DNA of 56,941 bases from Candidatus Scatosoma sp. (GTDB lineage Bacteria; Bacillota; Clostridia; Christensenellales; Borkfalkiaceae): contig JAZKXM010000088.1 of the NCBI GenBank assembly GCA_045611585.1, forward strand, positions 1-56,941, given 5' to 3'. Positions 20,180 through 37,000 of the stretch are shown here, piece after piece. The translations under genes and the position numbers were made by a program. Every line of letters starts with the position of its first letter. Position 1 is the first letter of the stretch. The notes beneath the pieces are model-generated. The model was not told the origin of the DNA and did no database searches. It saw only the letters and a program-made list of their open reading frames with translations.

Positions 20180-20208
20180 TTTACAAAGCGCGTTTTGTGT
20201 GGTATAAT
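20180..20208 (+). promoter_or_regulatory. sigma-A type promoter at the head of the 35-kb co-directional block
   Basis: TTTACA (20180-20185), 17 nt, TATAAT (20203-20208) preceded by TGTGG; about 55 nt upstream of the ATG at 20261. Confidence 0.6.
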
Positions 20209-20260
20209 AAAAGAGCGAAAAAAGGAAATTTTGTCGAAGGAAAGGGAAGGACGGAAAAAT

Positions 20261-21277
20261 ATGTTAAAAAAATACTATTCCGACAACTTAACGGGCCGTG
20301 TTTACGACGCCTATTTTTCCATTGACGGCGCGGTGCGGGCGTACCGTGACGACTGCACGCTGTACGGTGTAACCGCGGACGAGGCAACCCTTGCCCTCAA
20401 CGCCTTTTTCTTTGACAACCCCGACGTCTATTTTTGTTGCGCGCAGTTTGTAACGATGGAAGGTTCTTCCCAAGGGGTGCGGTTGCGCTTTTCCTATCAT
20501 CAATGCGATGAGGGGAAATTTGCGCGAGAGCTTAAAAAAATCACCGACGAGCTGGACAAAAAAATCACCTCGCAAACGACTGATTACGACGTGGCGAAGG
20601 CGGCGTACGACGTGCTGGCGGCGACGGTGAAGGGGGATTCGGAAGTTCTTTGCGCCTACGGGCGCCTAAACGTGCGCGATAGGGCGCAGGTGGAGGAATT
20701 TTCGCAAACGCACGGAACTTCTTTTTGCGCCTACGGCGCGATTGTCGAAAAGAAGGCGGTGTGCATGGGCGTTTCGCTTGCTTACAAGCTGCTGCTGGAC
20801 AAATACCGTGTAGAGTGCGCGGTGGTCACGGGGGATTATAATGGAATTCCGCACATGATGAACGTGGTTGAGGCGGACGGAAAGCGGGCGTACGTGGACG
20901 TGACGAAGGGGTTTATGGACGAACAGCTGCCCATGGTGCGTTACGACGTGTTTATGATGGGCGAAAAGAAAGTGGGAAAATATTTCGCGCCGCAGCAGGA
21001 TTTTGGGTGCGTGGATGAGGATTTGCACTACTTTGCCAAAAACGGGTTTTGGTTTAAGGACGGGTATGCGCTGCGGAGATACTTAAATTCCTTTACCTAC
21101 GAAAAGACGGGCGGCGAGGTTCGGTTTTACTATACGGGCAAGGGCTTTGACGACCGCGCTTTGGGAAAGCTTGCGGGGGATATCCTTCCCCGTCGGTGCG
21201 GGACGGAGTTCGATTACGTCGGGTGCATTGTAGAGCACGGCGTAGGAAACGCAATTTTGAAAAAACACAAGGAGTGA
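20261..21277 (+). CDS. transglutaminase-like cysteine protease superfamily protein (cytoplasmic)
   Basis: Cys-His-Asp layout of the transglutaminase-like core: KKAVCMGVSLAYKLLL ... IPHMMNVVE ... AYVDVT. No signal peptide. ATG 20261 has the RBS GAAAGGGAAGGA and lies downstream of the -10 box, so the ORF-track start 20195 is rejected. Confidence 0.7.
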   Translation: MLKKYYSDNLTGRVYDAYFSIDGAVRAYRDDCTLYGVTADEATLALNAFFFDNPDVYFCCAQFVTMEGSSQGVRLRFSYHQCDEGKFARELKKITDELDKKITSQTTDYDVAKAAYDVLAATVKGDSEVLCAYGRLNVRDRAQVEEFSQTHGTSFCAYGAIVEKKAVCMGVSLAYKLLLDKYRVECAVVTGDYNGIPHMMNVVEADGKRAYVDVTKGFMDEQLPMVRYDVFMMGEKKVGKYFAPQQDFGCVDEDLHYFAKNGFWFKDGYALRRYLNSFTYEKTGGEVRFYYTGKGFDDRALGKLAGDILPRRCGTEFDYVGCIVEHGVGNAILKKHKE

Positions 21278-21284
21278 TATTTTT

Positions 21285-23498
21285 ATGCAAGAGCAAGACA
21301 AAAGAAGGATGAAATGGCAGATCGACTTTGACAGCTTTTTCAACGTATTCAGCACCTTTATCATCGACGGGAATATCGACGATATTCAGCCGCTTATCGA
21401 CGAGGACGGCGGGGTGGAATACGTCCGTTTGACGGATTATTTTATCAGCAGTCTGTATGAAAACCGCGATACGGATAAAAAGTGCGTAGTCATTTACGAT
21501 CCCACCGAATCGGACGACAAGCGTTTCACCATCGCCTCGCCCTTTGAAGAACGGGTGAAAGAGAGCGAGGACGGGGAAAGCGAAAACCCCGACGAGGTGG
21601 AATACGAACGCGTTTACGACGATCCGCTTGCACAACATTTTTGGGATATTTTGCACGAAGAAGGGCTTGAAGAACAGCTTATCGGGCACAACGCGGGCGG
21701 GGCGTCCTTTGATATGGCTCGGGTGCATTACGCAGTTACCGAAAACGGGCGTATGACGCAAAACGAATTGCTTGCTCGGTTTAAAAACTTTTGGGATAGT
21801 TTAAACACGCAGGGCGGCGGCAGAACGACGGGGTACGTGTTCGTTATCAAAATGACCTCGCGGCTGTTGACGCACGAGGGTTCGTCCAACGGTTTGGGGG
21901 CGGACGAATTGCTTTTGTTCCGTCAGCTTTTGAATATCTCGCAAAATATCGTGAGAAACAGCGAGCATAAGTTGATTGTCCTTGCCAACAAAACGACGGA
22001 TTTGCCTATGTGGTTCACGGACGATACCGTCAATCCGTTTATCAAAAAATTGACGATTGAAAAGCCTTCCGAAAACAACAAAAAGGCGTTTTTCGATATG
22101 ATGATCGACGAGGTAAGCTTCGGCGAAGAATTTAACAGAAAATACCGCGAGGCAATCGCCTTAAAAGCGGGCGAAAGCTTAAATCCCGGGGAAACGGAAA
22201 CGCCCGCGGAAAAGAAAATTAAGCGCAAATTCCTTGCCTACACCAACGATTTTTCGATGAAGATGCTGGAATATTATCAATCCTACCTCCAACAGGGTAA
22301 CGAGGTGGATTCGCCCGACAAGCTGGGGTATTCGGTGGCGGCGTTTAAAGCGGGTACTTTGGAAAACCCTTGGGAGCGCGAAGACAAAATTAGAGATATC
22401 TTAAACATTACTTCGGTGGTGTCCAAAAAGATCAAGGGGCAAGACCAAGCCTTGGAAACGGTGCAAAATATCCTTACCCGCGCGGCGATCGGGCTGGGGC
22501 GGATAGATAACCCTAACGCGCCCCGCGTGGTGCTGTTCCTTGCCGGCCCTACTGGTACGGGTAAGACGGAGATTTGTAAACAGCTTGCCGAGGCGATTTT
22601 TGGCAGCGAAGAAAGAATGGTGCGTTTCGATATGTCCGAATACGGTCAAGACCACTCTGACCAAAAGCTGTTCGGCGCGCCTCCGGGATACGTCGGGTAC
22701 GAGGAGGGCGGTAAACTGACGAACGCGATGAAGAAAGAGCCTTTCTCGCTGGTGCTGTTCGACGAGATTGAAAAGGCGCACGGTTCGATTATGGATAAAT
22801 TCCTGCAAATTTTGTCGGACGGGCGTTTGACGGACGGCAAGGGGGAAACGGTCAGCTTTACGGACGCGATTATCGCGTTTACCTCTAACGCTGGCGTTAC
22901 CTCGCCTACGCCGAAAAACGAGTACGAGGCGATCGACATCGAAAAGAAGATGGGCGGCGAGAAAAAGCCCGAACGCGAAATGAATATGCAGGCGGTTATC
23001 GAAATGGAGCAAGAGGGCGTGCCCGCGGATGAGATTTACGAAAACGTCAGAAAATATTTCCGCTATAACGTCAAGCACTATTTCTGCTGTACCTTGAACC
23101 GTCCCGAACTGTACGGGCGTATTGAGGATTCGTTGGTGTATTATAACTATATCGGCAAGGCGGCGGTACAGTTGATCGTCGAGGCGAAGATGAATTCGCT
23201 GATCGAGGCGGTAAAGGACAAATACAAGATTGCGCAGGTGACCTGCGACGAAGCGGTAACGGACAAGGTCGTCGAATACTGCCAAACGGAACAAGTGCGC
23301 TCGATGGGTGCGCGTGGGATCGGCAAGGCGGTCAACGTGCTGTTTGAGGGCAGCTTGGCAAACTTCCTGTCCCCGTACGTAACCTTCCGTGACAATCACA
23401 GCCGCGCGGAGCTGGAAGGCAGAGCCCTGCGTTGTTCGGTTGCGGTGGGTCAAGAGGGGCTGTTAAAGCCCGCCGATCTTATATGGAGCGAGGCGTAA
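21285..23498 (+). CDS. AAA+ ATPase with ClpB/ClpA D2-type module and novel N-terminal half
   Basis: 737 aa. Residues ~400-737 carry Walker A GPTGTGKT (22545-22568), pore loop GAPPGYVGYEEGG, Walker B LVLFDE (22749-22766), FLQILSDGRLTDGKGETVSF, sensor-1 FTSNAG, RPELYGRIED and GARGIGKAV (D2-small). Residues 1-390 have no P-loop. Confidence 0.85.
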   Translation: MQEQDKRRMKWQIDFDSFFNVFSTFIIDGNIDDIQPLIDEDGGVEYVRLTDYFISSLYENRDTDKKCVVIYDPTESDDKRFTIASPFEERVKESEDGESENPDEVEYERVYDDPLAQHFWDILHEEGLEEQLIGHNAGGASFDMARVHYAVTENGRMTQNELLARFKNFWDSLNTQGGGRTTGYVFVIKMTSRLLTHEGSSNGLGADELLLFRQLLNISQNIVRNSEHKLIVLANKTTDLPMWFTDDTVNPFIKKLTIEKPSENNKKAFFDMMIDEVSFGEEFNRKYREAIALKAGESLNPGETETPAEKKIKRKFLAYTNDFSMKMLEYYQSYLQQGNEVDSPDKLGYSVAAFKAGTLENPWEREDKIRDILNITSVVSKKIKGQDQALETVQNILTRAAIGLGRIDNPNAPRVVLFLAGPTGTGKTEICKQLAEAIFGSEERMVRFDMSEYGQDHSDQKLFGAPPGYVGYEEGGKLTNAMKKEPFSLVLFDEIEKAHGSIMDKFLQILSDGRLTDGKGETVSFTDAIIAFTSNAGVTSPTPKNEYEAIDIEKKMGGEKKPEREMNMQAVIEMEQEGVPADEIYENVRKYFRYNVKHYFCCTLNRPELYGRIEDSLVYYNYIGKAAVQLIVEAKMNSLIEAVKDKYKIAQVTCDEAVTDKVVEYCQTEQVRSMGARGIGKAVNVLFEGSLANFLSPYVTFRDNHSRAELEGRALRCSVAVGQEGLLKPADLIWSEA

Positions 23499-23507
23499 AG
23501 GACGGTT

Positions 23508-24020
23508 ATGACCCAACGGAAAGAATTGCTAAAAATCGGCGCGAAATTAGAGCTCTGCGGCGAGCTTGACGCTGCCGCGGAGGTATATCGCAGATACGTT
23601 GAGGAGGGGGCGCGCCTTTCGGACGGAACGGACGCGCTGTGCCTTTTGTACGGAGAGGAGGCGTATAGCCAGCCTATTACCTCCTACCGCCGCGCGGCGG
23701 AATGTGCGTTCATCGGCGAGTGCGCCAAAAAACTGATAGAACTGATGCGAGGGAATTTCCCCGACGTCGGGCCCTTTGAAATGCCGACGGGGACGAAACG
23801 CCCCGACGCCGCCGTCGTTACTTTTTTCGAGTGGCTGACAAAACGGCGCAGTATCGGCGTGGACGATTATAAGATGTTAAAAAAGGCGAAAAACGCCTTT
23901 GCGAAATCGGGGAAGCTTTCGATAGAAGCGACTCCGTCCGTATCCCGTCGCACCTTGGAAGAGGTGGTGTGCGATTTGGTGTGCGGGGCGACGAAAGTGG
24001 TGGATAAAAGGTTGCGTTAA
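23508..24020 (+). CDS. hypothetical protein (170 aa, helical)
   Basis: ORF 9 nt after the AAA+ stop; its TAA abuts the next ATG (TAAATG at 24018-24023). No motif recognised. Confidence 0.65.
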   Translation: MTQRKELLKIGAKLELCGELDAAAEVYRRYVEEGARLSDGTDALCLLYGEEAYSQPITSYRRAAECAFIGECAKKLIELMRGNFPDVGPFEMPTGTKRPDAAVVTFFEWLTKRRSIGVDDYKMLKKAKNAFAKSGKLSIEATPSVSRRTLEEVVCDLVCGATKVVDKRLR

Positions 24021-25928
24021 ATGAAACTGATTAAAGTAAAATGTCCTAAAAACAAAAAGGTGGAGGTGGAGGACCTTGGCACGGGCGCGGCGCGCTGCCC
24101 CGCGCATTGTCCGTTAAAACAGCGCTCCCGTTGCTTTAACAACACCTTTCGATATACGGCGGCGTTAAATCCGTCCGTCACAGTGGACGTTCCTTTTGCG
24201 GAAGGGGGCGTCGTTTCCGCTTGTCCGCCTGCGGCGGAAAAAATTAATCCGCCTACTTTCTCTGCGCCCTCTTTTTCTGCACCTACTTTCTCCGCGCCTA
24301 CGCGCGAGGAGCATACGTCCTCCTTTGCCGCGCCTTCTTTTACGCGCGCGCCTGCGTACGAGAGCGCGCCCGCACGCGAGGAAGAACCTATATCCACGAT
24401 CGGTTACGCTTTCCCCGACGAGAAGGAAAGCGGGGTAATCGGGTATGAATTTCCTTCCTTTGAGGAGGAGAAGGAGTCCTTTTCTCAAAGGGGGCAAACG
24501 GAAAAGCGGAGTACGCTGGACAAATACAACGACGCGTTGACGTCGGTTAGCAGTCTGTTTGCGGGCGTTCGCACGCGGAGCGCGGACGAACCCTGCTTTG
24601 AGGACGGCGCGTACGTATTTTACGAAGGGGGGAATGCGGACGGCGCGGGCAATTCGGCGGCGGCGATACGGTATATCTTCCAGCATTGGTACGTATCAAA
24701 GGTGTTTGAGGAAAACGGAAAAAATTATCGGGAAGAATTTTTGTATCTTCTCAAACTGCGCGGGTTTAAGGACAAGGAAGCCGAGCTTCGCGCGATCGTC
24801 GAGGACGCGGCTTTGGACGTCAACAGAAAATTTTTCCGCCTTTTCTATTCGGTGATCTATCAAAACCAAATCAACGGGTTTTACTGGCACGAGGGGGATT
24901 CGCCCTTCCGTAAAATTCCGCCGAAATTTTTAAACTTGGAGGACTTTTTCAAAAAGCTGGCAGCCGCCTTGGACCCGTCCGAATTTTTGCAGAGTTTTGA
25001 AAACTGCTTTGACGAGCTGACGGTGTTTTTACAGGCTGGAAAGCAAACGGAAAACGGAAAGGAATGGTTTAAAAAGAATTTGCCGCTTATGATGGCGGCA
25101 CGGGAAAATTGCGTTTCTTACGTTGATGAAACGGACGGGAAGATTACGTTGAAGAACTTGGGCGGGATCAAAGGCTTTATCCAAAATATGGCAAAGCCCG
25201 CCACGGTAAAAACAATGTCCGAACGATACCGTTTCTTGCGGGAATTTAAAATTACCGTCAACGGACGGGTACTCCCGCGGGAACAGCCGTTGCCCCTTTC
25301 TGCGCCGAGGACGGCGGAGGACGACGGCGTGTATGAAAGCGTAGGACTCTTTTCCTTGGCGGCGTCACAGTGCGCTACGGCGTATAATTATTACGTCACT
25401 TTGTTAAAGGAATACGTGGACGTGTTTCACCCCGACAGCATACGCTTTGCAAACGGATATTTTTCTTGCAGGAATTTTTATGAGGAGCTGTTGGTTGCGA
25501 TCACGGACGCTTGCGCGCATCTTTCGGAGGAGCGGGCGGGCAGTTATCCCGAGGTGCAACGGCTGTACGTGGTAAAAAGCTTTTTCGACCGCGGCGTGTT
25601 TGATTATTTTGAAACCCGTTGCGAAACGAAGAAATTGCAGGGGCTGAAAAAGGCGTTTGTGGAAAGCGAAAAGGTGGATTTGGAAACGTATTTCCGCTTT
25701 GAGGGCTTGAAGCATTTTGTGACGGTCGGCGGCGAGAGAAAGACGGTCGGCGGGTATTTTAAAGAAACCGTCAAACGCGAGGCGTCCTTTATCGAAGGCA
25801 ATTTCGGCGCGGATAAGATCGCGAGGGCGTACTTTGCGGCGAAAATTCCGTCGGGGGATTGGAAGGTCGCCGAAGGGGAAATTGAAAAATTACTTGCCGA
25901 ACAGCAAAAGCTGGTCAACGAATTTTAA
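24021..25928 (+). CDS. hypothetical protein (635 aa) with Cys-rich N-terminus and P(T/S)FSAP repeats
   Basis: N-terminal C8/C26/C30/C38 (KCPKN..(17)..CPAHC..(7)..C); triple PTFSAP-SFSAP-TFSAP at 24252-24302; large C-terminal region without a recognised motif. Confidence 0.75.
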   Translation: MKLIKVKCPKNKKVEVEDLGTGAARCPAHCPLKQRSRCFNNTFRYTAALNPSVTVDVPFAEGGVVSACPPAAEKINPPTFSAPSFSAPTFSAPTREEHTSSFAAPSFTRAPAYESAPAREEEPISTIGYAFPDEKESGVIGYEFPSFEEEKESFSQRGQTEKRSTLDKYNDALTSVSSLFAGVRTRSADEPCFEDGAYVFYEGGNADGAGNSAAAIRYIFQHWYVSKVFEENGKNYREEFLYLLKLRGFKDKEAELRAIVEDAALDVNRKFFRLFYSVIYQNQINGFYWHEGDSPFRKIPPKFLNLEDFFKKLAAALDPSEFLQSFENCFDELTVFLQAGKQTENGKEWFKKNLPLMMAARENCVSYVDETDGKITLKNLGGIKGFIQNMAKPATVKTMSERYRFLREFKITVNGRVLPREQPLPLSAPRTAEDDGVYESVGLFSLAASQCATAYNYYVTLLKEYVDVFHPDSIRFANGYFSCRNFYEELLVAITDACAHLSEERAGSYPEVQRLYVVKSFFDRGVFDYFETRCETKKLQGLKKAFVESEKVDLETYFRFEGLKHFVTVGGERKTVGGYFKETVKREASFIEGNFGADKIARAYFAAKIPSGDWKVAEGEIEKLLAEQQKLVNEF

Positions 25929-25952: not shown

Positions 25953-27914
25953 ATGAGTTCGATAGACAAGGGTGTAGAACAGGTCGTCAACCGAATGGGC
26001 AGAAACGTGCGGGTGGTAAAACGCGGCAACGTTATCTACGGGTATATGAACGGGGAACAGGTGTTTTCCCTCGCCGACCGCTACGGGTACATAAACGATC
26101 GGGAAGAAGCGATCATTCGGGACGGGATTCGCCGTTATGACGAGGAAGAACGCCGTCGGCAGGAACGTCGCGAAGCGGAACGCCGCGCTCGCGAGGAGGC
26201 GATTCGTCGCGCGAGAGAGGAGGAGGAACGCCGTCGGCGGGAAATGTTAGAGGCGGAACGCCGCCAAGCGATTGCAAACCTCAAACGGGCGGCGGAGGAA
26301 AAGCGCAGGGAAATAAACGGCGCGATCAGCCGTCGGCAAGAAGCGGTGCGGGCGATTGAAAACGCGGCGGAAAAACGCCGTAAGGGAATTGAAAGTATGT
26401 CCCGCAGGGCAAGCGGATTGGATTTTTCCGCTCTGTTACAGCGTAGCGCGCAAACGGCAAGCCGTCAGCGGACGGCGGCGGAAGGGGAAACGCAAAAATT
26501 CCGCGCGACAACCTCGCAGCTGGACGCCTTGACTGCGCAGATCAAGGATAGCATGACGACGGAGCAAGCCAACGAGCTTTTAAAGCGTTGCCGCAGGGTG
26601 ACTTTACCTGCTCTTTCGGGAGAGGACGCGGGGTACGAAAACGGAAAGTTCGCCGAAGAATTGTCGCAGATCGAAAACGGCTTAAACGAATTGTTGCCTG
26701 CGATCGGGCGGTTGCAGGAGGCGGGCGGCGCAAACGACGAAACGGGGATTATTGCGCGCGAAGCGATCAAGAGTATTTCCCTGCAAACGATCGGAGGCGC
26801 GGAGGATTTGGCGGCGGTTTCGGCTACGGCGGAAAAGCGGCTTTCCAAGATCGTAGAGGTGATGGAAAACAACCGCACGGCGGAGGCGGTCGGGAAGCTT
26901 TCCTATCTGCACGGCGCGGTGTCCGCTTGTAAAAAGACGCAGACGATGGTGGCAAAATCCACCTATACGGCAAACGATTTCCGTGGCGAAATCGTACAAA
27001 AGGCGACGGCGGCGCTGGCTGGGTTTAGAAAGCTTGCCGAAGGAGAATTTAGCACTTGCTCTAAGACAAGATACGCGCAAGCGACGGAGCGGCTGGAAGG
27101 TATTTTGTTGCAGGACGGCGTGGGCGAGGAAGTTTTGCGCGAGGTGGAAAAGCTGTCCGCAGAGCTGTCCGAATACGAAGAGGACGTCCGCCTGCATGCA
27201 GGGGAGTATGAAGAATATAAAGCTTTGAAGGAACGGCTGATCGGGTACGGTTTGGAGGAAAGGGAAATCCCCGCCTTTGACGTAAAAGGCTACGCAAGGC
27301 AAAAGCAAGAATTTTCCGCTCGGCTTGCCTATGAAAAGAGGGAGTATGAAAAATCTCAGCTGATTATGACGGATATGCATGCGCGTTCGGCGATGGAGCA
27401 GATGGGGTACGAACAGTTTGCCTCCGTCGGTGACGCGGAAGGGTACGTTAGAGAAGCGTTGTTCACCAAGGCTGGTTATGACGGAGTTTTGTGGCAGGTG
27501 ATTTCGTACGCCAACGGGTCGGTGTCCCGTCGGGTGATCGGGGTCAACAAAGGCGAAACGCAAACGGATAAAGAGTACGTTAAGCAAGTGGCGGCGGAAA
27601 TGGACGAAAAAGGGGATCAGCAACGGTTTTTGCAGTTGTTTAAAGAAGGGACGGGTTCGGAGCTTCGCGTGACCGAGGCGGTAGAGCACGATTCGGAAAA
27701 CGCCGACGAGGCAATTGAGAACAACGGGTTCCATTATTTGCAGGGGGAGGCTTTGCAATTATACGAAAAGCGAGTGCAAAAGATCGTCCAAAACAAGCCC
27801 GTCAAGGCGAAGCAAACGCAGGTGCGCGTGATGGCGGGGGACGCGGTGGCAAGCTCGGCGCGGTCCCTTTCGCGGGCGGCGCAAAAGAGCAGGGCAATGT
27901 GTCATGAGAATTGA
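25953..27914 (+). CDS. hypothetical coiled-coil / ER-K charged-helix protein (653 aa)
   Basis: RBS GGAGAAAGG. Residues 63-120 are almost purely E/R/K/A (EEERRRQERREAERRAREEAIRRAREEEERRRRE..); long helical middle; C-terminal tail ..QVRVMAGDAV... Confidence 0.8.
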   Translation: MSSIDKGVEQVVNRMGRNVRVVKRGNVIYGYMNGEQVFSLADRYGYINDREEAIIRDGIRRYDEEERRRQERREAERRAREEAIRRAREEEERRRREMLEAERRQAIANLKRAAEEKRREINGAISRRQEAVRAIENAAEKRRKGIESMSRRASGLDFSALLQRSAQTASRQRTAAEGETQKFRATTSQLDALTAQIKDSMTTEQANELLKRCRRVTLPALSGEDAGYENGKFAEELSQIENGLNELLPAIGRLQEAGGANDETGIIAREAIKSISLQTIGGAEDLAAVSATAEKRLSKIVEVMENNRTAEAVGKLSYLHGAVSACKKTQTMVAKSTYTANDFRGEIVQKATAALAGFRKLAEGEFSTCSKTRYAQATERLEGILLQDGVGEEVLREVEKLSAELSEYEEDVRLHAGEYEEYKALKERLIGYGLEEREIPAFDVKGYARQKQEFSARLAYEKREYEKSQLIMTDMHARSAMEQMGYEQFASVGDAEGYVREALFTKAGYDGVLWQVISYANGSVSRRVIGVNKGETQTDKEYVKQVAAEMDEKGDQQRFLQLFKEGTGSELRVTEAVEHDSENADEAIENNGFHYLQGEALQLYEKRVQKIVQNKPVKAKQTQVRVMAGDAVASSARSLSRAAQKSRAMCHEN

Positions 27915-28491
27915 GCGCGCCGTCAACTACGTCGAAGCGTTGGGCCCTGGGCGGCGGCTGTGCGTATGGGTAAACGGCTGTTCGCGGCGGTGTAAAGGCT
28001 GCGTATCCGCGCGGTTGCAGGTGGTGGACGAAGGGACGGAAGCGGAGATAGAAGAGTATTTTTTTGGATATAACCTACGCGCGATCGACGGCGTGACGGT
28101 ATCGGGGGGAGAGCCCTTCGAGCAGATTGCCGAGCTGGAACGGCTGGTGAAGTATTTTCGGCGGCGCGGGGTGAAGGATATATTAGTATATACGGGCTAT
28201 ACTTTGGAAGAATTGCAGGCGAAAAAGGACGAGAGAGTGGAAAGGATTTTTTCACAAATTTCCGTGCTGATCGACGGGCCGTACGTTGCGGAGCTGGACA
28301 GTGGCAAGGGCAATTTGACGGGGAGCGAAAACCAAAGAGTGCATTATCTGGACGAAAGCGTAAGGGCGGCGTACGAGGCGTACCAAACGGAAAAGCGTTC
28401 GGTGCAAGAGATGACGTTGGGAAACGTCTTGCTGGGGGTAGGGATCCCCGATACGGAATACATCAAACGGTTTAACGAGGAGAAAAATTAA
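27904..28491 (+). CDS. NrdG-type radical SAM activating enzyme (anaerobic RNR activase-like), orphan
   Basis: 195 aa; CX3CX2C at 27979-28002 (NGCSRRCKGC); VSGGEPF; YTGYTLEEL; LIDGPYVAELDSGKGNLTGSENQR. ATG overlaps the upstream stop by 11 nt. Confidence 0.8.
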   Translation: MRIERAVNYVEALGPGRRLCVWVNGCSRRCKGCVSARLQVVDEGTEAEIEEYFFGYNLRAIDGVTVSGGEPFEQIAELERLVKYFRRRGVKDILVYTGYTLEELQAKKDERVERIFSQISVLIDGPYVAELDSGKGNLTGSENQRVHYLDESVRAAYEAYQTEKRSVQEMTLGNVLLGVGIPDTEYIKRFNEEKN

Positions 28492-28503: not shown

Positions 28504-30519
28504 ATGGCAGAATTTTATTTCGACAGTAAATTTAGCACGTTAAAGGACGATCTGGGCGTAACGGCAAGCGGTATGCCTCAAGTACACGTAGAGCGTGATT
28601 ATCAGCGGAGTGACGTGGGGTACGTGCTGTACGTTACCTTCCCGCAATGGGACGCGCCGCACTGGGGCGGACGGGAAAGAGAGCTGCCCTTTGACAGCGC
28701 GCGGATAATTTATAATGTTCGCGGAATGGGGATAAAGAAGATCATTGACGATTCTCCTACGGCGTTACAGAAAAAGGAGATAGAGGTGGACAAAAGCTTT
28801 TCCTATCAAAACGAAGTGGGAGAAAAGGATTATAAAAAGCAAGGGTTCCGTTACATATTTGTCCGCGATGAAAACGACCTTTCGGGCGTGGGCAAAATTA
28901 TCTTAAAAAGCGCCCGCCGCGAAGGGGAAACGGTAATCTATTTCGCTGTCAATTATGGATTAAAAAAAGTGATCAAATATTCTGTGAAAGGGGGCAAGAT
29001 TCTCTTTGAGGGAAAAGGAGTACAAGAAAAAATCAAGGTGCGGATCAACTATTCGCCCAATCGGTATCCTTGCCTTACCGAAGACAATAGAAACAATAAC
29101 AAGGTGGAGATCGAAATAGATTTTGCAAAAACACCTATTGCCGAGTGGTTGTTCCCCGAAGAATTGCTGGATAAGCGGGAGGGGCATCGATATCAGCAGG
29201 TGTGCGTAACTTTTGCAAGGGACGTTCAAGAAAAATTGGAAAAATATTACCTTTTGCAATGTGTCAAAAACGATACCTTTAATATTCGTCGTCGCGAATT
29301 TGAGCATCCAAATCCTATTTTCTTCTGTCCGTATTGTCATCAACGAATTGAGGTAAGCGCGGCAATGACGAGGGCGTATAAAAAGGGAGGTTGTTCTTGC
29401 CGAGGAACAAGATTTAACGAAAACGGAAAACTGTTACCCGTGATGCAAGCAACTGAAGGAAAAAAACTGGCTAAAAACGTAATGTATTGCGAAAAAGATT
29501 TCCAGATTAACCAAGGATTCAGAGCGATAGGTGGAAGAAGCCGTATCCTGCCTGAAAATTTTTTAGGACACAACCATTATAAAATTTTGGTCATTGGGTC
29601 GAAACGTGCTGGTAAAACTACCTTTATCTCTCGTTTATTTAATATCATAGGGAAAGAAACTAATTTAATAATGGACGCAGAAATGCTAAAGAACGCTACG
29701 CAAAAGAAATTTAAGATAGATAGTCGCCCCATTCAAAATTTACCTTCTAGGAATAAAGATGGAGCACCGATGCTTAGTAAAGACCTGTGGTATCAAGAAT
29801 CGACAATGGCAAAGGATCATTACGGCGGATATGCTATTCGTTTGGCTGATGGGACATATCCCGAACCGACGAACACCGTTGATTTGTCCGGATTGCCTTT
29901 TGTATTGAAGGTGAGAGAGAAAAACTATATTTATTTTTACGATATTGCAGGGGAAGATTCCGAAAAGAAACGAGATAGGGTCAAGCATCTTTTAGAAGAG
30001 GGCGTAGCGGGCGTATTTTTTCTTGTGGACGGTAAGACGAATGAAATGGGTAATACCTCGGCTTGGGAAACCTTGGGAGCGGTTGCTGAGAATAACCCTG
30101 ATATCCCTGTGGCGGTGATATTAACCAAGTTTGATACCATAGAAAAGGAATTTGATACAAATTGCCATTGTCTTCGCGCCGACGCATACGATATGATGAA
30201 TAAGCGGTACGACGGCAGTCAGCTGGAACGGAATATCGAATTTGCCAGTGAAGAAATACAGTCCTATCTTGCGTCTCGTAAACTTTCTCTGCAAACAAAG
30301 GTTGCCGAAGGACAAAAGGAGAAGGAAGATGAAAAGGCGAAGTTTAAAAACATTTGCTATTTTGGCGTATCCTCTTTTTCGGACAGCGACGCGGTATTCC
30401 ATCGCGACCAGAAAAACAACGAGGGGCAAGAGGAGAATTACCTAAAACACGCTTGCTCGCCAAAGCGTATGGAGCTGCCCGTGATTTGGATGTTGAAACA
30501 ATTTGGGTGTATTATTTAA
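28504..30519 (+). CDS. Zn-ribbon-containing TRAFAC-class GTPase with large N-terminal domain
   Basis: 671 aa. CPYC (29326-29337) .. CSC (29392-29400) ribbon; G1 GSKRAGKT (29596-29619); G3 DIAGE (29941-29955); G4 TKFD (30124-30135). N-terminal ~270 aa not recognised. Confidence 0.8.
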   Translation: MAEFYFDSKFSTLKDDLGVTASGMPQVHVERDYQRSDVGYVLYVTFPQWDAPHWGGRERELPFDSARIIYNVRGMGIKKIIDDSPTALQKKEIEVDKSFSYQNEVGEKDYKKQGFRYIFVRDENDLSGVGKIILKSARREGETVIYFAVNYGLKKVIKYSVKGGKILFEGKGVQEKIKVRINYSPNRYPCLTEDNRNNNKVEIEIDFAKTPIAEWLFPEELLDKREGHRYQQVCVTFARDVQEKLEKYYLLQCVKNDTFNIRRREFEHPNPIFFCPYCHQRIEVSAAMTRAYKKGGCSCRGTRFNENGKLLPVMQATEGKKLAKNVMYCEKDFQINQGFRAIGGRSRILPENFLGHNHYKILVIGSKRAGKTTFISRLFNIIGKETNLIMDAEMLKNATQKKFKIDSRPIQNLPSRNKDGAPMLSKDLWYQESTMAKDHYGGYAIRLADGTYPEPTNTVDLSGLPFVLKVREKNYIYFYDIAGEDSEKKRDRVKHLLEEGVAGVFFLVDGKTNEMGNTSAWETLGAVAENNPDIPVAVILTKFDTIEKEFDTNCHCLRADAYDMMNKRYDGSQLERNIEFASEEIQSYLASRKLSLQTKVAEGQKEKEDEKAKFKNICYFGVSSFSDSDAVFHRDQKNNEGQEENYLKHACSPKRMELPVIWMLKQFGCII

Positions 30520-30534
30520 AAGGAGAAAAACGCG

Positions 30535-32976
30535 ATGATACAATACAAACATTATCACGACGTGGAAGAGGGGTATAAAAGCATAGCCTCGAAAAACGCA
30601 GAGGATGCGGACGTAAACGTTTTTAAGGCGTTGGGCGCGTTTGAAAGGAGCGGGGAAAGTTGCTTTACCTATTTTTATCAAGACGGAAGAGGATATTTTT
30701 ACCAAAAGACCTGCAAGGGGGACGTTTTTGCGCACGGGCTTTGCGAAGAAGTTAGCGCGCTTGGCAAAGGTTACGCCACCGAATATATCGGGCAGCTGGA
30801 AACAAAATACAAAACGGAAACGGATAAGGAGGGGTATTTGCCCGAAGGGAAATTGCCCTATCGCCGCGCAGAGTGCGACCTATCCTTGGGGCGCGGCTTG
30901 CAGCCCGTCTTTGCGCGCATCGTCGATACTCTGCTTTACACGGACAAGCCCGTTGTTTTGACGGGAAAAAACACGGAAGAGCTGGTCAGATACGTCAAGG
31001 TGGCGTTGCTTTTATTCCCTGCCCAATATGCAAATACGATTGGGTTTTCCGTCTGTCCTCAATATCTTCCCGACGTATTTGGGAATACGGAAAGGGCAAT
31101 TGGGCGGAACGTGCGTCTAATTGCGACGGACGAAGACGTGCGGGCGTACAGCGGCTGGACGGTACTCAACGTCAATGGGACTTGGCGGGAGGAAAACGCG
31201 GAAGAGCTGCGTCCTTACGCGAAGGCGATCGACGGCTTGCAACGATATATCGTCAGCGGCAACGGCAATAGGGCGAGCGCCCTTCTCAACACAGTGTGCC
31301 CTTCTTTTGGCGGTGACGGCAGTGTGAATACGGAAATGCTGGAAACGGCGATCTGCGTATATAATTTCTCTGCGGAGCATACGCCCGAACGGGCGGCGGA
31401 GCTGATCGGCGCAAAGAAGGCGGACAAAAACGGCGTTGTGTTGTCCTCTATGGTGACGGAAGCGGTGTTTGAGATTTTAAATCAAGCCGAACTGAACGAA
31501 GAGGAGGAAGGCTTGATCGAATATGCCCGTACGGACGGGCAGGTGAACGAGCTGGTCAAACAGCAATGCGGCAGATACGCGCTTACAAAGCTGGCGCAAG
31601 GGCAAAAGCTGACGAATCTGCAAGAGGAGGACGTCATCTCCTTCTTGGAAGACTTGCCCGTGGAAGAATTGAAAGGGGAGGGCGCGGCGTTAAAGGACGT
31701 ATTCGGTGCTGCCCGCGCGATGAACACCCTTTCGGTATTCTGCAAAGCGTATGCGCAGACGGGAAAGAGGGAGTTGTTGAAGCTGATTTCGCAATATACG
31801 GACGTGCGCAAGACGTGGACCATAGCGGGATTTGATGAGGAGATGTTTGCGCTGGCAAACGGTTATAAAAAGGAACAGACGGCTTTACTGGCGGCGATGT
31901 TATCTACTTGTTTTATCTCGGTAGTGCTTGGTTCGGCAAGCATGAGAGAAAAGACAACTCCCCGTTTGCGGCTGTTTGCAAAAAGAGGGGAAGGCAAAAA
32001 CGGGATCGAATGGATCAAGGAGTTACTTTCCTTAAAAGTAGAGGTAGAAAAGATCGCAGGGGAAGATATGTCTTTTGCGGACGATTTCGAGTTTTTGCAT
32101 AGAGAAGATCTGTCCGCATTGATTGCGAGGCTTACCTTTGAAGAATGTTTGACCCTTGCCAACGGCGGGGCTTGTATTGAGAATTATATCGCGTTGCAGA
32201 ACGGAATTGTCGGGCGGCTGACCTCTTACAAGGAAGTGAAAGAGAACGTCGCTTTGGGCAAAAATTTGGAAAAATATCTCACGTTTAAGCAACGCAATAA
32301 AGAGGCGTCCGTCGACGGCAACGAGATAGACGAATATCTGGACGAATTAAGTAGGTTGGAAGAAGTCAACAAATGGGTGGAAGAATATCGGGGAAGTTTT
32401 TTCCATGGTAAATACAACACGGCTTCTTTGGAGCAACGGAAAAAGATTGCCGCCGAAGTGGCGTTGAAAACGGGAAAGACGTATAACGTCAACGGGAAAA
32501 CAGACAAGGAAGAAGGCAAGGACCAGCTGAAAGAGCTGCTGTTGGATAACAAAATTTCCTTTGCTGAAAAAGAGGAGATAACGGACATTATGTCCAACGC
32601 GTTGCATAATGAGCTTGTGGGGAAGAATAAAAATTCGAACATTCGCAACGTGCTGTTTTTGATGTATTCGTGCCTGTTGGGGGTGCTGTTGATGGCGATC
32701 ACGTGCGTAATTTTTGCGGTACTACCCATTGCGTCCTCCGTGCTGTTGGAGGTGGATATGTTGAAAAGAACGATTGGCTTTTTCACCGTCTACCATTTGA
32801 TTGCGATAGCGTACGTGGGCGTATTAGCCGTTGCAACGTATAGAAGGTGTTGGAAGAAGAGCGACGAGGACAGATTGGGCTCGTTGAAAAAATCGGTGCG
32901 GGTAACGCTGTTGTACGGCGTATTGCCGGCGTTTCTGTACGCGGTGGCGTATGCAGTGACATATTTTGTGCTTTGA
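30535..32976 (+). CDS. hypothetical 813-aa protein, C-terminally membrane-anchored
   Basis: RBS AAAGGAGAAAAA. About 700 aa soluble region without a recognised motif, then 3 hydrophobic helices in the last ~110 aa (nt ~32641-32973). Confidence 0.75.
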   Translation: MIQYKHYHDVEEGYKSIASKNAEDADVNVFKALGAFERSGESCFTYFYQDGRGYFYQKTCKGDVFAHGLCEEVSALGKGYATEYIGQLETKYKTETDKEGYLPEGKLPYRRAECDLSLGRGLQPVFARIVDTLLYTDKPVVLTGKNTEELVRYVKVALLLFPAQYANTIGFSVCPQYLPDVFGNTERAIGRNVRLIATDEDVRAYSGWTVLNVNGTWREENAEELRPYAKAIDGLQRYIVSGNGNRASALLNTVCPSFGGDGSVNTEMLETAICVYNFSAEHTPERAAELIGAKKADKNGVVLSSMVTEAVFEILNQAELNEEEEGLIEYARTDGQVNELVKQQCGRYALTKLAQGQKLTNLQEEDVISFLEDLPVEELKGEGAALKDVFGAARAMNTLSVFCKAYAQTGKRELLKLISQYTDVRKTWTIAGFDEEMFALANGYKKEQTALLAAMLSTCFISVVLGSASMREKTTPRLRLFAKRGEGKNGIEWIKELLSLKVEVEKIAGEDMSFADDFEFLHREDLSALIARLTFEECLTLANGGACIENYIALQNGIVGRLTSYKEVKENVALGKNLEKYLTFKQRNKEASVDGNEIDEYLDELSRLEEVNKWVEEYRGSFFHGKYNTASLEQRKKIAAEVALKTGKTYNVNGKTDKEEGKDQLKELLLDNKISFAEKEEITDIMSNALHNELVGKNKNSNIRNVLFLMYSCLLGVLLMAITCVIFAVLPIASSVLLEVDMLKRTIGFFTVYHLIAIAYVGVLAVATYRRCWKKSDEDRLGSLKKSVRVTLLYGVLPAFLYAVAYAVTYFVL

Positions 32977-32981
32977 GGTGA

Positions 32982-33974
32982 ATGATGGCTAAGAAGAAGA
33001 TATTTTCGATAAAAACGATATTGCTTTTGATCTGTCTTGTCGGCGGGGCGTTTTTGGGCTTTTTCGACGCGACGGTCTTGGGCGTGAACTTCTTTGAGGA
33101 AAAGGTGTATGAAGCGGAGGTGGATTCGCAAGACGATCTTTTGGAGATGGGCGGGTCCTTCCACAACAACGTCATCAAGCTGACGGGGGATTTTTTGGTT
33201 GACCAAAAGGGAGGCTTTGCCTCTAAGGAATTCCCCTTTGTCGGGACGTTTGACGGGCAGGGGCATACGATTGAATTTAAAGATTTTAGAAAGACGGACG
33301 ACGAGGGCGTGGAGAGCGTGGAAAAATACAACGTTTGCCGTTCCTTCTTTGGGTATATCGGCAAAGGCGGGGTCGTGAAGAATTTGACGATCAAGGTTTC
33401 GACCGCGGATATGAAAAACAAGCTGGGCGGCATTTTTGCCTTGGAAAACGAAGGAAAAATCGTCAACTGCAAGGTTGTCGTGGGGAAATATACCGTGATG
33501 ACGAAAGGTATATACGGCGGCTTGGTCGGACGGAATAAGGGGGACGTGGAAAACGTCGTCTGCGAGGTGTACTTCGATAAAAATATTATGGCGGAAGAAG
33601 TCGAAAGTAAGCAAAAATTAGCGCTTGGCGGGCTGTGCGCGTACAACACGGGGAACGTGCGCTCGTGCATTGTGAAGACGACGTTTAACGCAAATCAATT
33701 TGAAGAAACGCAAGAAAAGCTGGTGTTTGAAGGGAAGCAGTACAATAACCGAATCGGCGGGGTGTACGGCCCGAAAAGCAGCGTGGGGAAGGTGGAAAAA
33801 ACCGTTTGCCTGATTGATACGGGGGTAGCCGTATCCGATAAAGACGGGGCGGGTATCACCTTTGAGCGCGACGCAAGCAAGGTGTACAATTATTTTGTGT
33901 TGGAAGAGCTTGGCTTTAACGTGGACGAATGGAAGCTGGAAGATAATACGTTTGTTTTGGATATGGAGAGATAA
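32982..33974 (+). CDS. membrane-anchored GLUG-motif protein
   Basis: 330 aa; N-terminal TM (ILLLICLVGGAFLGFF); repeated GLUG-type motifs YGGLVGRNKGDVENV, LGGLCAYNTGNVRSC, IGGVYGP. Confidence 0.7.
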   Translation: MMAKKKIFSIKTILLLICLVGGAFLGFFDATVLGVNFFEEKVYEAEVDSQDDLLEMGGSFHNNVIKLTGDFLVDQKGGFASKEFPFVGTFDGQGHTIEFKDFRKTDDEGVESVEKYNVCRSFFGYIGKGGVVKNLTIKVSTADMKNKLGGIFALENEGKIVNCKVVVGKYTVMTKGIYGGLVGRNKGDVENVVCEVYFDKNIMAEEVESKQKLALGGLCAYNTGNVRSCIVKTTFNANQFEETQEKLVFEGKQYNNRIGGVYGPKSSVGKVEKTVCLIDTGVAVSDKDGAGITFERDASKVYNYFVLEELGFNVDEWKLEDNTFVLDMER

Positions 33975-34038: not shown

Positions 34039-37000
34039 ATGAGAAACAGAACGAGATTTTCGCTAAAATGGGTGGGGTTGATCCTTGTGATTATACTTGC
34101 CGCGTTTGGATTGACTGCTTGTAAAAAGGGCAAACAAACGAAGTACGAAATCATCGCGACCGACGAGATAGAGGTGCTGGTAGATAGAGAAGCCTCCTTA
34201 GACCCCGTGTTGATGGACGGAGAGGGGAATTTTTTGGACGGAAAATTCCGTTACGAATACGAGGGCTTTGAACAGTACATAGCTATCGAATACGGAACAA
34301 TTACGGCTTTGAAACCGTACGACGGGGATATCGAGGTAACCATCATCGAAAAGGACAAAGGACTGAAAAAGACGGTGACGGTGCGGATTATTTCCGAGCT
34401 GTCAGGCGTTTTAGAGCTCCGTGACGAAACGGGCGTACCCGTTGATGGCGAGATTAAAATGACCCTTGGACAATCTATGGTGTTCGAGGCGGTAACGCTG
34501 CCCGCAGGGACGGCGATCGAACAATATTTTTCCTTCCGCTCGGCAGACATCGAGGGGACGGAAAAGCACGTTTTTGACGTTTCCGTTTCTCAAAACAAAG
34601 TTACGGTGACCGCGGTCGGTTTAGGCAAAGGGGAGATGAACTTCCTTTTGAAAAACGAAAGCCGCCACGTCAACGAAACCTTCTCCTATCCGTTTACCGT
34701 TGGATTTGCTTCGGAAACGGATGGCAGCGCTCCGCTTGGAAAAGCGGTTTTGGACGGCGCGGGGAAAACTCTGCTTTCTAAGCAAGAGCTTTCTGAGGTA
34801 AAGCGCGTTGTCTTTGCGGAGGACGTTACGCAATTTTCCGCTGCGGAAGCAAAGACGTATTTACCCGCCCTGCAAGCCCTTATATTTACGGGCGAAAAGA
34901 AAGTAATGCCGAACTCCTTTGAGGATTTGGCGCAAGGCTGGAAATTCCGCGTGAAAGGCTTGGACGCGTATCAGGCGTACCGCGCGGACGAGGCTTGGGG
35001 CGCGGTTGCAGAGCGCGTATATCCTTACGAAACGGACCATACGAAGCCCGTTTTGGTGTATCATAACGAAGGAACTGTACGGCTGGGCGGCGATATGTTG
35101 TTTGAACAGCATATATACAATTTTGAAGAGAGCGATTATTCGTTCAAGAGTGAAACTTCGCCGCTGTTAAAGGCGGTGGAAGCGCCCGAAACGGTGGAAG
35201 AATACGCCTTTGCGGGGTACGATTTTGCGGGCTGGACGGACGCGCAAGGGGTGCCTTTTGACGGAGAGGATATCTCCAAAGTGACGGAAGGGATTCATTT
35301 GACGGCGAACTGGACGGCGAAGGAATACACGGTCACCTTAAACGGTTACCCGCAAGGGGACGGGGAAAACGTGACGGTGAAGGTTGCCTATAACGGCGTG
35401 TTGCCCCTGCTTGCGGACGGGGAAAAGGACTGCTGGACGTTTGTGGGGTGGTACCTTTCCAAAGAATACAAAGACGAAGAAAAGGTGGATACGGAGCTGC
35501 TGTACCATACGGCAAGCGATTTGATCTTATACGCGAAATTTACGGCGCAGCTGAGATTTTTTTACTATCAATGGACGGGTGCGCAAGATATAACGGTGCC
35601 TATCGTTTACGGGAAGCCGATTGGGGAGAGTATGCCCGAGCATACGGCGCCTATCAACGGCTGGACATTTGAGGGGTGGTATTATGGGTCTTCCTGCCGT
35701 GAGGGCGAGGAAATGACAAGCGATCAGCCTTACACCCGCGAGGGGGATTTCTTCCAAGGCTTTTCGCATACTTTGTATCCGAAATGTACCTATATCGCAA
35801 AGCTGGAAACGTTTGGCTTAGCGGAAACCAACCCTACGCAGTTGATTGTGCGGGCGGGCAAGTCGGTCAATCTGTCCCTCTATTTGGAAGGGCAGGATTT
35901 GTACATGATGAACCTTGTCGGAAAGGACGGTTGGACGTTTAAGGGCTGGACGGCGCAAACCTATTACGAGGACGGGTTTAAAACTCTGGGTTTGGATCAG
36001 CATTTTATCATTGACGACGATGAAACGCAGTTGACCCCTGCCAACGCGCCCGTGCTGTACGCGATTTACGAAACGGAGAACACATACGTTTACGGGCCGA
36101 AGGGCGCGGAAAGCGAAAAACAGACGGTTGTTTTTGGCTGTCAAAGCGATCTTTTAAACCCCGAATTGGAGGAATATAAGCAAATAAACTCGTTTGACGG
36201 ATATTTGTTTGCAGGCTGGTATTTAGGGACGGAAAGACAAACATCCTTACAGCAAATCACCGCCGAATTTGCAGGCAGAACGTACGTTGGGAAATATAAT
36301 GCAAAGGTATATACCGCGCATTTTGATTTTTTTGGACAGGAATTGACGGAACACGCGCGCACGTTTACCGACGTGGGGACGGATTTGACGGATAACGTTT
36401 TAAATAACAATACGGACGGCTTGGCGGGACGTGTGATCGAGGTGCCTGCCGTGCAGGAAAAGACGGGGTATCGCGGATTTTGGACGTATAACGGCAAAGA
36501 GATCGCCGTAGAAGAAGGGCGTTACACCGTTGAAGCGGACGTGTTTAGGGACGTTACGCTGGTTGCGGATTACGAGGCGAATGCCTATTATATTCATTTG
36601 GATACGCACGGAATTTCTGAAAGCATTTCAAAAGAGGTGAGATACGACGGGGATTACAGCTTGCCTATTGATGACGTGCCTACGCCCACGGGGACGGATT
36701 ACGATTTTGTCGGGTGGTATTTGTCCAAAGAGTATAAGGAAGAAGATAAGATACAGGAAGGAACGTATAAGTGGACGGAAGATATCACCGTTTACGCGAA
36801 ATACACTATATCGGTGAGCTTTGTCGAATATACTCGTTTCAATGCGGAAGAGGACGTCGGCGGAAACAAGTCTGCCGTCTTTACCTACGGTAAGACGGCG
36901 GAATTTGATACGTTGGACGTACGCGGAGGTTGGTCGTTTGCGGGCTGGTATTATAAGGAAGACGGCGTTGAAAAGCCCGTCGAATATGAAGAAGGGACAA

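Follow-up and report, generated by a model that had tools for sequence, protein, structure and literature searches.

A small gene of the radical S-adenosylmethionine (radical-SAM) class, together with the gene cassette in which it is embedded, was analysed on a 56,941-nt contig stretch from Candidatus Scatosoma sp. (JAZKXM010000088.1), the whole of which is called the window here. The gene lies on the forward strand at 27904..28491, starts with ATG and encodes an NrdG/PflA-like protein of 195 aa, a compact partial barrel followed by a C-terminal extension. An earlier reading of the sequence alone (the original prediction) had given this position and length together with a set of activase motifs, and both were borne out. 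The [4Fe-4S]/SAM cluster motif CX3CX2C (27979..28002, +) supplies C26, C30 and C33 and is followed by V-S-A-R-L-Q; VSGGEPF (residues 66-72), YTGYTLEEL (96-104), LIDGPY (122-127) and GSENQR (140-145) come after it. The layout of a compact activase, namely CX3CX2C, a GGEP SAM motif and GSxNQ within about 150-200 aa, is thus present (C26/C30/C33, SGGEPF 67-72, GSENQ 140-144).

By textbook account, an activase of the NrdG/PflA type serves a single client, a glycyl-radical enzyme of anaerobic metabolism that it turns on. The resemblance of the window enzyme to this type goes far beyond what chance could give: it matches Pfam Fer4_12 at 9.7e-32, its top NCBIfam hit is NrdG (TIGR02491, 9e-28), and it shares 35% identity with E. 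coli NrdG over 144 aa. A profile search of the PDB with the enzyme family returned the activase PflA at 5.6e-7, with QueE next at 0.06. The AlphaFold2 (AF2) model of the protein (pLDDT 93.7) found a sole significant match in Foldseek, 8fo0 (PflA-AE; E 2.3e-4, prob 1.00, TMq 0.52 over 132 columns), and it places a helix, a beta-hairpin and a second helix in the C-terminal extension of about 50 aa (about residues 150-195), these elements spanning 151-193. The motifs GPGxR, GGEP, TGY, DGxY and GSxNQ are kept throughout the clade to which the enzyme belongs, and the clade carries a signature of its own, LGPGxR-x3-W, T-x-SGGEPF-x-Q, DGxY and a C-terminal G-x-P. The NCBI name for these proteins is only '4Fe-4S single cluster domain-containing protein'.

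The gene is tightly packed between its neighbours, as had been read. An upstream reading frame of 653 aa stops at 27914 and overlaps the radical-SAM gene by 11 nt, and the next frame begins at 28504, leaving a gap of 12 nt. The overlap is kept in relatives, at 11 nt in locus L005 and 1 nt in L001. The coiled-coil gene upstream and the radical-SAM gene are translationally coupled.

Distinction from a housekeeping NrdG

Relatives of the enzyme were collected by a scan of one genome per species, which gave more than 523; 80 loci were retained, plasmid loci were added, and about 90 loci were examined in all. Open reading frames around the retained loci were clustered into families (F numbers below) and representatives were checked with Pfam, by which the variable modules were confirmed. 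Five NrdDs and the glycyl-radical domain of PflB served as tblastn queries for NrdD and PFL, and eight positive-control loci were all recovered. The search in the source organism covered the window, where tblastn was empty and Pfam scans of the large reading frames likewise yielded nothing, in agreement with the original prediction that no NrdD or PFL is encoded there. None of the about 90 cassette loci contains an NrdD or PFL domain detectable by tblastn either. Close orthologues adjoining nrdD, which would have pointed to a housekeeping gene, did not occur, and the orphan status claimed for the gene extends to every relative examined.

One alternative is that the protein is an ordinary housekeeping NrdG and that nrdD is located somewhere else in the genome. 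NrdG is indeed the top-scoring named family, 35% identity with the E. coli protein is appreciable, and the nrdD search in this genome covers the window alone. The score against TIGR02491 is 97.1 bits, however, below the equivalog cut-off of 126.1, and that against PRK11121 is 65.2, below the cut-off of 199. The motif C-x-N-x-x-T-W that follows the third cluster cysteine in PflA and in the seven NrdGs compared is replaced in the window enzyme by C-V-S-A-R-L-Q, and it is absent at the 70% level among 76 cassette enzymes. The residues after GSxNQ number 43-79 in cassette enzymes vs 6-36 in the seven bona fide NrdGs of the reference set, each of which is annotated as adjoining nrdD and lacks the extension. 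The operon is kept across 48-95% identity of the radical-SAM protein, in every case without nrdD. Moreover, two copies occur on different contigs of single metagenome-assembled genomes, namely L016 with L019 in Oscillospiraceae U.11_4 and L027 with L081 in Ruminococcus sp. UBA3665, and the two cassettes of the latter differ in type (B and C, see below). Taken together, the sub-cut-off score, the loss of N-x-x-T-W, the C-terminal extension and the lack of nrdD in about 90 loci mean that a housekeeping NrdG is essentially excluded.

A neighbour-joining (NJ) tree with PflA as outgroup and 100 bootstraps placed all cassette-borne enzymes in one clade beside the NrdGs. The clade of the window's own cassette type (type A) reaches 92/100, but the deep separation from true NrdGs is weakly supported at 33/100.

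The cassette in the window and its relatives

Before 20 kb the window carries ordinary Firmicute housekeeping genes, including priA, def, fmt, rsmB, rlmN, recG and trmO. A second radical-SAM gene at 7024-8082, in the def-fmt-rsmB block, is an ordinary RlmN-type rRNA methyltransferase and unrelated to the enzyme under study. A promoter-like site at 20180..20208 (+), identified by consensus match only, then marks the probable head of the operon; it is a near-consensus sigma-70-type element, TTTACA-17-TATAAT with a TG. After it come eleven genes on the same strand, spaced by -11 to 85 nt.

The first of these, on the + strand like all that follow, encodes a transglutaminase-like protein (F7; 20195..21277) with invariant C190, H220 and D235, which was missed by Pfam at E <= 0.01 and was matched by profile to PDB 9crn_A at 1.2e-26. 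Its real start is probably downstream, since the listed TTG (20195) falls inside the promoter-like site. The second gene (21285..23498) encodes an AAA+ ATPase of 737 aa, AAA737, with a ClpB/ClpV D2-like AAA_2 module at 415-613 and a degenerate AAA-like N-domain before it. Next come a helical protein of 170 aa (p170, F16; 23508..24020), which has no known domain and is conserved in most type-A cassettes, and a protein of 635 aa (p635, F12; 24021..25928) with an N-terminal, Zn-ribbon-like Cys cluster (C8/C26/C30), a low-complexity linker and a globular domain, for which the profile search of the PDB gave no match. The 653-aa coiled-coil protein (cc653, F13; 25953..27914) begins with an invariant MSSIDK, which is followed by a coiled coil rich in E and R and by an alpha/beta domain at the C-terminus; the coiled-coil label is a reading of the E/R-rich heptad-like stretch, joined by profile matches to other coiled-coil partners.

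Downstream of the radical-SAM gene, the 671-aa protein at 28504..30519 is a GTPase, as had been proposed, with invariant G365, G370 and K371 in the P-loop, D480xxG483-E484 (DxxGE) and T541-K542-x-D544 (TKxD); it also bears a Zn ribbon (C275/C278/C299/C329) and is probably a distant DO-GTPase. It is followed by an 813-aa protein (p813; 30535..32976) with a big cytoplasmic part and, as read from its sequence, C-terminal transmembrane helices. This protein is a probable GAP1-like partner and had no match in the profile search of the PDB. A 330-aa protein (p330, F9; 32982..33974) with an N-terminal membrane anchor, conserved in type-A cassettes, precedes a giant protein of 3948 aa (F8; 34039..45885) that has the lipobox LTAC, many Flg_new repeats, a C-terminal Hint domain (G|CFTGDT) and a tail of about 100 aa. 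The last gene (45970..55449) encodes a second giant surface protein of 3159 aa with an N-terminal transmembrane segment, six BspA-type LRR_5 units, Flg_new repeats and a C-terminal transmembrane anchor. Its membership in the cassette is doubtful, as it is not conserved in most relatives.

The remaining ten genes define type A, in the order transglutaminase-like protein, ClpB-like AAA+, p170, Zn-ribbon p635, coiled-coil protein, radical-SAM enzyme, GTPase, membrane protein, p330 and giant Flg_new/Hint lipoprotein. Genes 1-10 stand in the same order and between the same flanks at 73% identity of the radical-SAM protein (L005-L007), and again in the same order at 48% identity (L001-L004), where the flanks are others, a Big_3 protein and an HD protein. 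The order was found once more in L008-L013, L015, L029 and L066, which come from a range of uncultured Clostridia and Bacilli. The C-terminal Hint domain and tail of the giant protein were matched in 8 distinct type-A loci at 32-53% identity and its N-terminal region in 7. The conserved Hint and tail in the last type-A gene suggest autoprocessing or ligation of a surface protein.

The enzyme clade is far larger than type A. At 50% identity it falls into at least 299 clusters (E <= 1e-30), the representatives of which are all standalone proteins about 120-270 aa long, and its carriers are enriched in anaerobes, with relatives also in strict aerobes and in an oxygenic cyanobacterium. Distant relatives (32-45% identity) lie in at least four other recurrent cassette types. 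Type B combines a coiled-coil protein, a Zn-ribbon and FHA protein, the radical-SAM enzyme, the same ClpB-like AAA+ protein, a PP2C phosphatase and a Ser/Thr kinase; it is carried by Clostridium drakei, Pelotomaculum, Leptospiraceae, Coriobacteriaceae and a plasmid of Aristaeella lactis, and on an annotated type-B plasmid the radical-SAM gene is translationally coupled to the FHA and AAA genes. Type C, found in Eubacterium ramulus, Lachnospiraceae and Bacteroidaceae, has several Hsp70-like ATPases and coiled-coil proteins, the radical-SAM enzyme, a further coiled-coil protein, a three-AAA/trypsin protein of 1100-1700 aa and an RCC1-like protein. In type D a large actin/Hsp70-like protein is followed by coiled-coil proteins, the radical-SAM enzyme, a coiled-coil protein and a two-AAA protein; the actin/Hsp70-like label is a reading of the sequence, and neither Pfam nor PADLOC gave a family for it. 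Type E consists of TerD arrays, the radical-SAM enzyme, coiled-coil proteins and an AAA-trypsin protein.

Full-length relatives are also borne on plasmids of Acinetobacter, Rhizobium, Calothrix, Rhodococcus and Paenibacillus. The Calothrix PCC 6303 plasmid encodes Hsp70, a TPR protein, the radical-SAM enzyme, a coiled-coil protein and an AAA protein, and carries members of F2, F3N and F5. The Acinetobacter plasmid has an AAA protein, a PIN protein, an F1-type AAA protein and the radical-SAM enzyme, and its AAA617 falls in F1 at E 1.9e-165. This arrangement was seen on an Acinetobacter NDM-1 plasmid (L093, 1-10826), where the F1-type AAA+ and radical-SAM genes stand with a large AAA protein, a PIN-domain protein of 720 aa, a small AAA protein and a second, unrelated radical-SAM protein of 328 aa. 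The Paenibacillus and Rhodococcus plasmids show an AAA protein, DUF1257, DUF2997 and the radical-SAM enzyme. These loci (Paenibacillus polymyxa, L095 6715-9582; Rhodococcus, L096 4252-7989) are a minimal context with no coiled-coil protein. DUF1257 is so annotated in Paenibacillus only, its Rhodococcus counterpart being an unnamed hypothetical protein, and Rhodococcus has in addition a helix-hairpin-helix protein.

Partners were counted in the 55 non-redundant loci that extend 6 kb or more to either side, with a crude gene caller that leads to an undercount. The AAA type was present in 49 and the coiled-coil type in 48; both were found in 44 and neither in 2. The stable core is therefore the radical-SAM enzyme, the AAA+ protein and the coiled-coil protein, with the GTPase specific to type A. 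Of the two neighbours whose retention in orthologues the original prediction had proposed to test, the coiled-coil protein persists across the wider family and the type-A order down to 48% identity, but the GTPase is not a constant partner.

The partners are related between cassette types. The coiled-coil families were linked by HHalign (F11-F13 97%, F11-F32 97%, F2-F26 95%, F11-F26 94%), their common element being a C-terminal alpha/beta domain of about 100 aa. Iterated HMMER did not yield a single coiled-coil superfamily, and the wider link comes from HHalign. The AAA N-domains F1N and F3N were aligned at 96% over 248 columns, so that one N-domain is common to types A/B and C/E; the same degenerate AAA-like N-domain is present in the Acinetobacter and Calothrix plasmid AAA proteins. 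For the C-terminal domain of cc653, single-sequence and profile database searches gave one homologue, and an AF2 model built on 2 sequences had an overall pLDDT of 65, with about 75-87 in residues 1-120. This medium-confidence model consists of a helix, a four-stranded meander and two helices, and Foldseek found nothing significant for it (best E 0.3).

The extreme N-termini of the coiled-coil partners are conserved as well, MSSIDK in type A (25953-25970) and MSGPK, MSGRK or MSGE elsewhere, in some cases followed by a hydrophobic segment (L017-L085). They may serve as a tag by which, for instance, the AAA+ protein or the radical-SAM enzyme recognises the coiled-coil protein.

Proposed mechanism and rival explanations

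From the enzyme class, the lost linkage to NrdD, the conserved cassette, the shared partners and the translational coupling, a working model may be drawn in which the substrate is a protein and the radical step serves as output or switch in a conflict role. The enzyme would reductively cleave SAM, and the resulting 5'-deoxyadenosyl radical would abstract hydrogen from a polypeptide, either a protein of the cassette or a client held or unfolded by the coiled-coil and AAA+ partners. A polypeptide substrate is suggested by the fact that the nearest relatives all act on proteins, and by the constant partners, of which one is an ATPase that remodels proteins and the other a scaffold. The radical step would be gated by the NTPase and surface modules. 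Different lineages would attach different modules round the triad: in the window the DO-GTPase-like protein, the GAP1-like membrane protein, the transglutaminase-like protein and the giant Hint-terminated protein, and elsewhere the Ser/Thr kinase with PP2C and FHA, the Hsp70-like ATPases, TerD, the trypsin-fused multi-AAA proteins or PIN. We consider it on balance probable that, jointly with this working model, the enzyme descends from the NrdG/PflA activases, has left the service of ribonucleotide reductase and has become, as a member of a large clade, a fixed component of a roughly ten-gene operon (about 20.2-45.9 kb).

A defence-type conflict role is favoured over metabolism because the distribution is patchy, modular and plasmid-borne. 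A bolder reading, which is offered tentatively, is that the cassettes form an undescribed and widespread class of conflict or stress system, in which an activase-derived radical-SAM enzyme, an AAA+ unfoldase and a coiled-coil scaffold use protein radical chemistry as a switch or weapon. Its target could be a cassette protein or an invader protein fed by the unfoldase, and the triad would have been plugged into at least five sensing or regulatory modules, one of them the DO-GTPase/GAP1 module of the window with its giant surface sensor.

Several observations weigh against these readings. The separation of the cassette clade from true NrdGs has the low bootstrap given above, and the 35% identity to E. 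coli NrdG is no lower than that to the radical-SAM proteins of other cassette types. The links between coiled-coil families are profile-profile scores (94-97%), which are open to inflation by coiled-coil composition, and iterated HMMER united only F11, F32 and part of F13. The motif R[IVTL][SCAGT]G[YFW], run as a regular expression over all called genes of 87 loci, gave scattered single matches, none of them recurrent, and the partner families hold no invariant glycine in an RVxG-like context. As for the conflict role, the locus in the window shows no GC anomaly and no integrase, PADLOC-DB 2.0 returned only generic AAA, trypsin and coiled-coil matches besides a weak pVip match to the radical-SAM protein (3e-4), and viral copies amount to 2 weak loci, one of which is a genuine phage nrdD-nrdG; a phage origin was rejected on this ground. 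The constant giant surface protein of type A could point to a function at the cell surface instead.

Such a function would concern type A only and would involve no conflict role: the giant Flg_new/Hint lipoprotein would be matured, exported or anchored by the cytoplasmic NTPases together with the radical-SAM enzyme and the transglutaminase-like protein. The giant repeat protein does close the type-A cassettes, as the matches to its two ends show (8 and 7 loci), conservation extends equally to the membrane proteins p813 and p330, and the locus sits among housekeeping genes at unremarkable GC content. We nevertheless regard surface-protein biogenesis as very improbable, for the core of radical-SAM enzyme, AAA+ and coiled-coil protein recurs in many cassettes without a surface protein (types B-E and the plasmid versions), the ordinary lipoprotein signal read on the giant protein leads one to expect no special exporter, and the GTPase/membrane pair resembles the DO-GTPase/GAP1 conflict systems.

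The original prediction had further suggested that the radical-SAM enzyme acts on, or together with, a neighbour in its operon. The association is upheld by the conserved gene order and the kept overlap, but a conserved RVxG[FYW]-type site was found in none of the neighbour families. On that proposal the enzyme would be a true glycyl-radical activase for an unrecognised protein of the cassette, for example cc653, which has 'SRRVIGV' in its C-terminal domain. Its 'RRVIGV' recalls the RVxG-hydrophobic pattern and lies, in the AF2 model, where a beta-strand gives way to a low-confidence loop; the NrdG/PflA motif set is retained except for N..TW, the coupling with the coiled-coil gene is tight, and carriers are enriched in anaerobes. 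The glycine is not conserved, however: it is replaced by proline in L066, other members of the family vary, and the equivalent strand-end position is not invariant in F11, F2 and F26. The conserved N-termini of the coiled-coil proteins (MSGPK/MSGRK/MSSIDK) were likewise rejected as a glycyl site, not being uniformly Gly. No PflB-type Gly_radical domain was detected in the neighbourhood, nor does any RVxG[FYW] motif recur there. Furthermore, a stable glycyl radical would be destroyed in the strict aerobes and the oxygenic cyanobacterium that carry relatives, and together with the loss of N..TW this argues against a classical stable glycyl radical. A glycyl-radical activase in the strict sense therefore appears quite unlikely.

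A small-molecule enzyme after the manner of viperin or QueE, whose toxic or signalling product would be sensed by the GTPase here or by TerD elsewhere, deserves somewhat more weight but still seems unlikely. QueE is the second-best match in structure and sequence, the weak pVip hit points the same way, the loss of N..TW suggests an altered substrate site, and TerD, arrayed in one cassette type, is listed as a possible binder of nucleotide derivatives (PMC7159879). Against this, QueE (2e-3) and viperin are far less similar to the enzyme than NrdG (9e-28) and PflA are, its constant companions (an unfoldase-type AAA+ protein and a coiled-coil protein) are not nucleotide-metabolising enzymes, and no conserved kinase, nucleotidyltransferase or other small-molecule pathway gene stands alongside.

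Comparison with known systems

With NrdG (TIGR02491) the cassette enzyme shares its compact size, the GPGxR loop, CX3CX2C, SGGEP, TGY, DGx[FY] and GSxNQ, in addition to the identity with the E. coli protein. Unlike NrdG it has neither the H of C-x-H-x-C nor N-x-x-T-W, and it resides in AAA+/coiled-coil cassettes from which nrdD is absent. PflA (3c8f/3cb8, 8fo0) is the closest solved structure by both profile and fold and has the same partial-barrel radical-SAM core, but identity is about 20%, the C-terminal half of PflA is absent from the cassette enzyme, no PFL-type glycyl-radical domain lies nearby and N..TW is lost. The prokaryotic viperins, to which the pVip match refers, are likewise radical-SAM enzymes in a probable conflict context. 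The cassette enzyme belongs to another subfamily, far closer to NrdG/PflA, and is tied to AAA+ and coiled-coil partners, whereas viperins act alone, on nucleotides. Among defence systems in PADLOC, the ATPase module of AAA737 matches DolB of Dodola (5e-18) and PDC-M37B (4e-27); the match is limited to that module, no DolA-like partner is found here, and the N-domain is specific to the radical-SAM cassettes.

The nearest parallel for the type-A neighbourhood is provided by the GTPase-centric (DO-GTPase/GAP1) conflict systems, above all those of the GAP1-N2 type, described by Kaur, Burroughs, Iyer and Aravind (eLife 2020, PMC7159879). These consist of a TRAFAC GTPase with a Walker-B Glu and often N-terminal Zn ribbon(s), with GAP1 downstream; in the GAP1-N2 type GAP1 often has terminal transmembrane helices and is accompanied by a fast-evolving FNIII repeat protein and by Hsp70 or kinase/PP2C themes, and the systems were interpreted as conflict systems with repeat-protein sensors (PMC7159879). 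The window GTPase has a Zn ribbon (C275/C278/C299/C329) and the Walker-B Glu (DIAGE, D480-x-x-G483-E484), a large partner with C-terminal transmembrane helices lies directly downstream, a fast-evolving repeat protein is present, and the kinase/PP2C and Hsp70 themes appear in related radical-SAM cassettes. In Pfam, DO-GTPase2 matches 4 of the 12 members of the GTPase family (best 2.4e-7), the window protein itself reaching 0.0022 over the P-loop only, 18 bits vs a cut-off of 27. GAP1-M matches 3 of the 9 members of the downstream membrane family weakly (best 1.7e-4), with no match for the window protein, and neither GAP1-N nor GAP1-C was detected by Pfam in that family. The pair probably resembles DO-GTPase/GAP1, by a likeness that we take as real although the matches are weak. 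There are differences too. The repeat protein here is built of Flg_new (Listeria-Bacteroides) repeats and Hint, not FNIII, and the paper reports no radical-SAM enzyme, ClpB-like AAA+ or coiled-coil protein of the present kind with its systems (PMC7159879), nor does its supplement contain a radical-SAM entry. A full-text literature search found no description of the enzyme clade or of its cassettes, the DO-GTPase paper being the sole related one.

A large activase clade, with hundreds of 50%-identity clusters in many phyla, on plasmids and in aerobes, has left its single-client job. Should the target be a protein, the clade would put protein-radical chemistry to a new purpose, regulation or immunity instead of catalysis, and would add a new enzymatic output to NTPase-centred conflict systems, the effectors of which are mostly unknown. 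Cultured carriers, among them Clostridium drakei, Eubacterium ramulus, Aristaeella lactis, Calothrix PCC 6303 and the hosts of the Acinetobacter and Paenibacillus plasmids, make the question testable. In comparison with the systems above, what is new is the recruitment of an activase-type radical-SAM enzyme into NTPase-centred, DO-GTPase-like cassettes, and there is a fair chance that the triad of radical-SAM enzyme, AAA+ ATPase and coiled-coil protein is a system class of its own.

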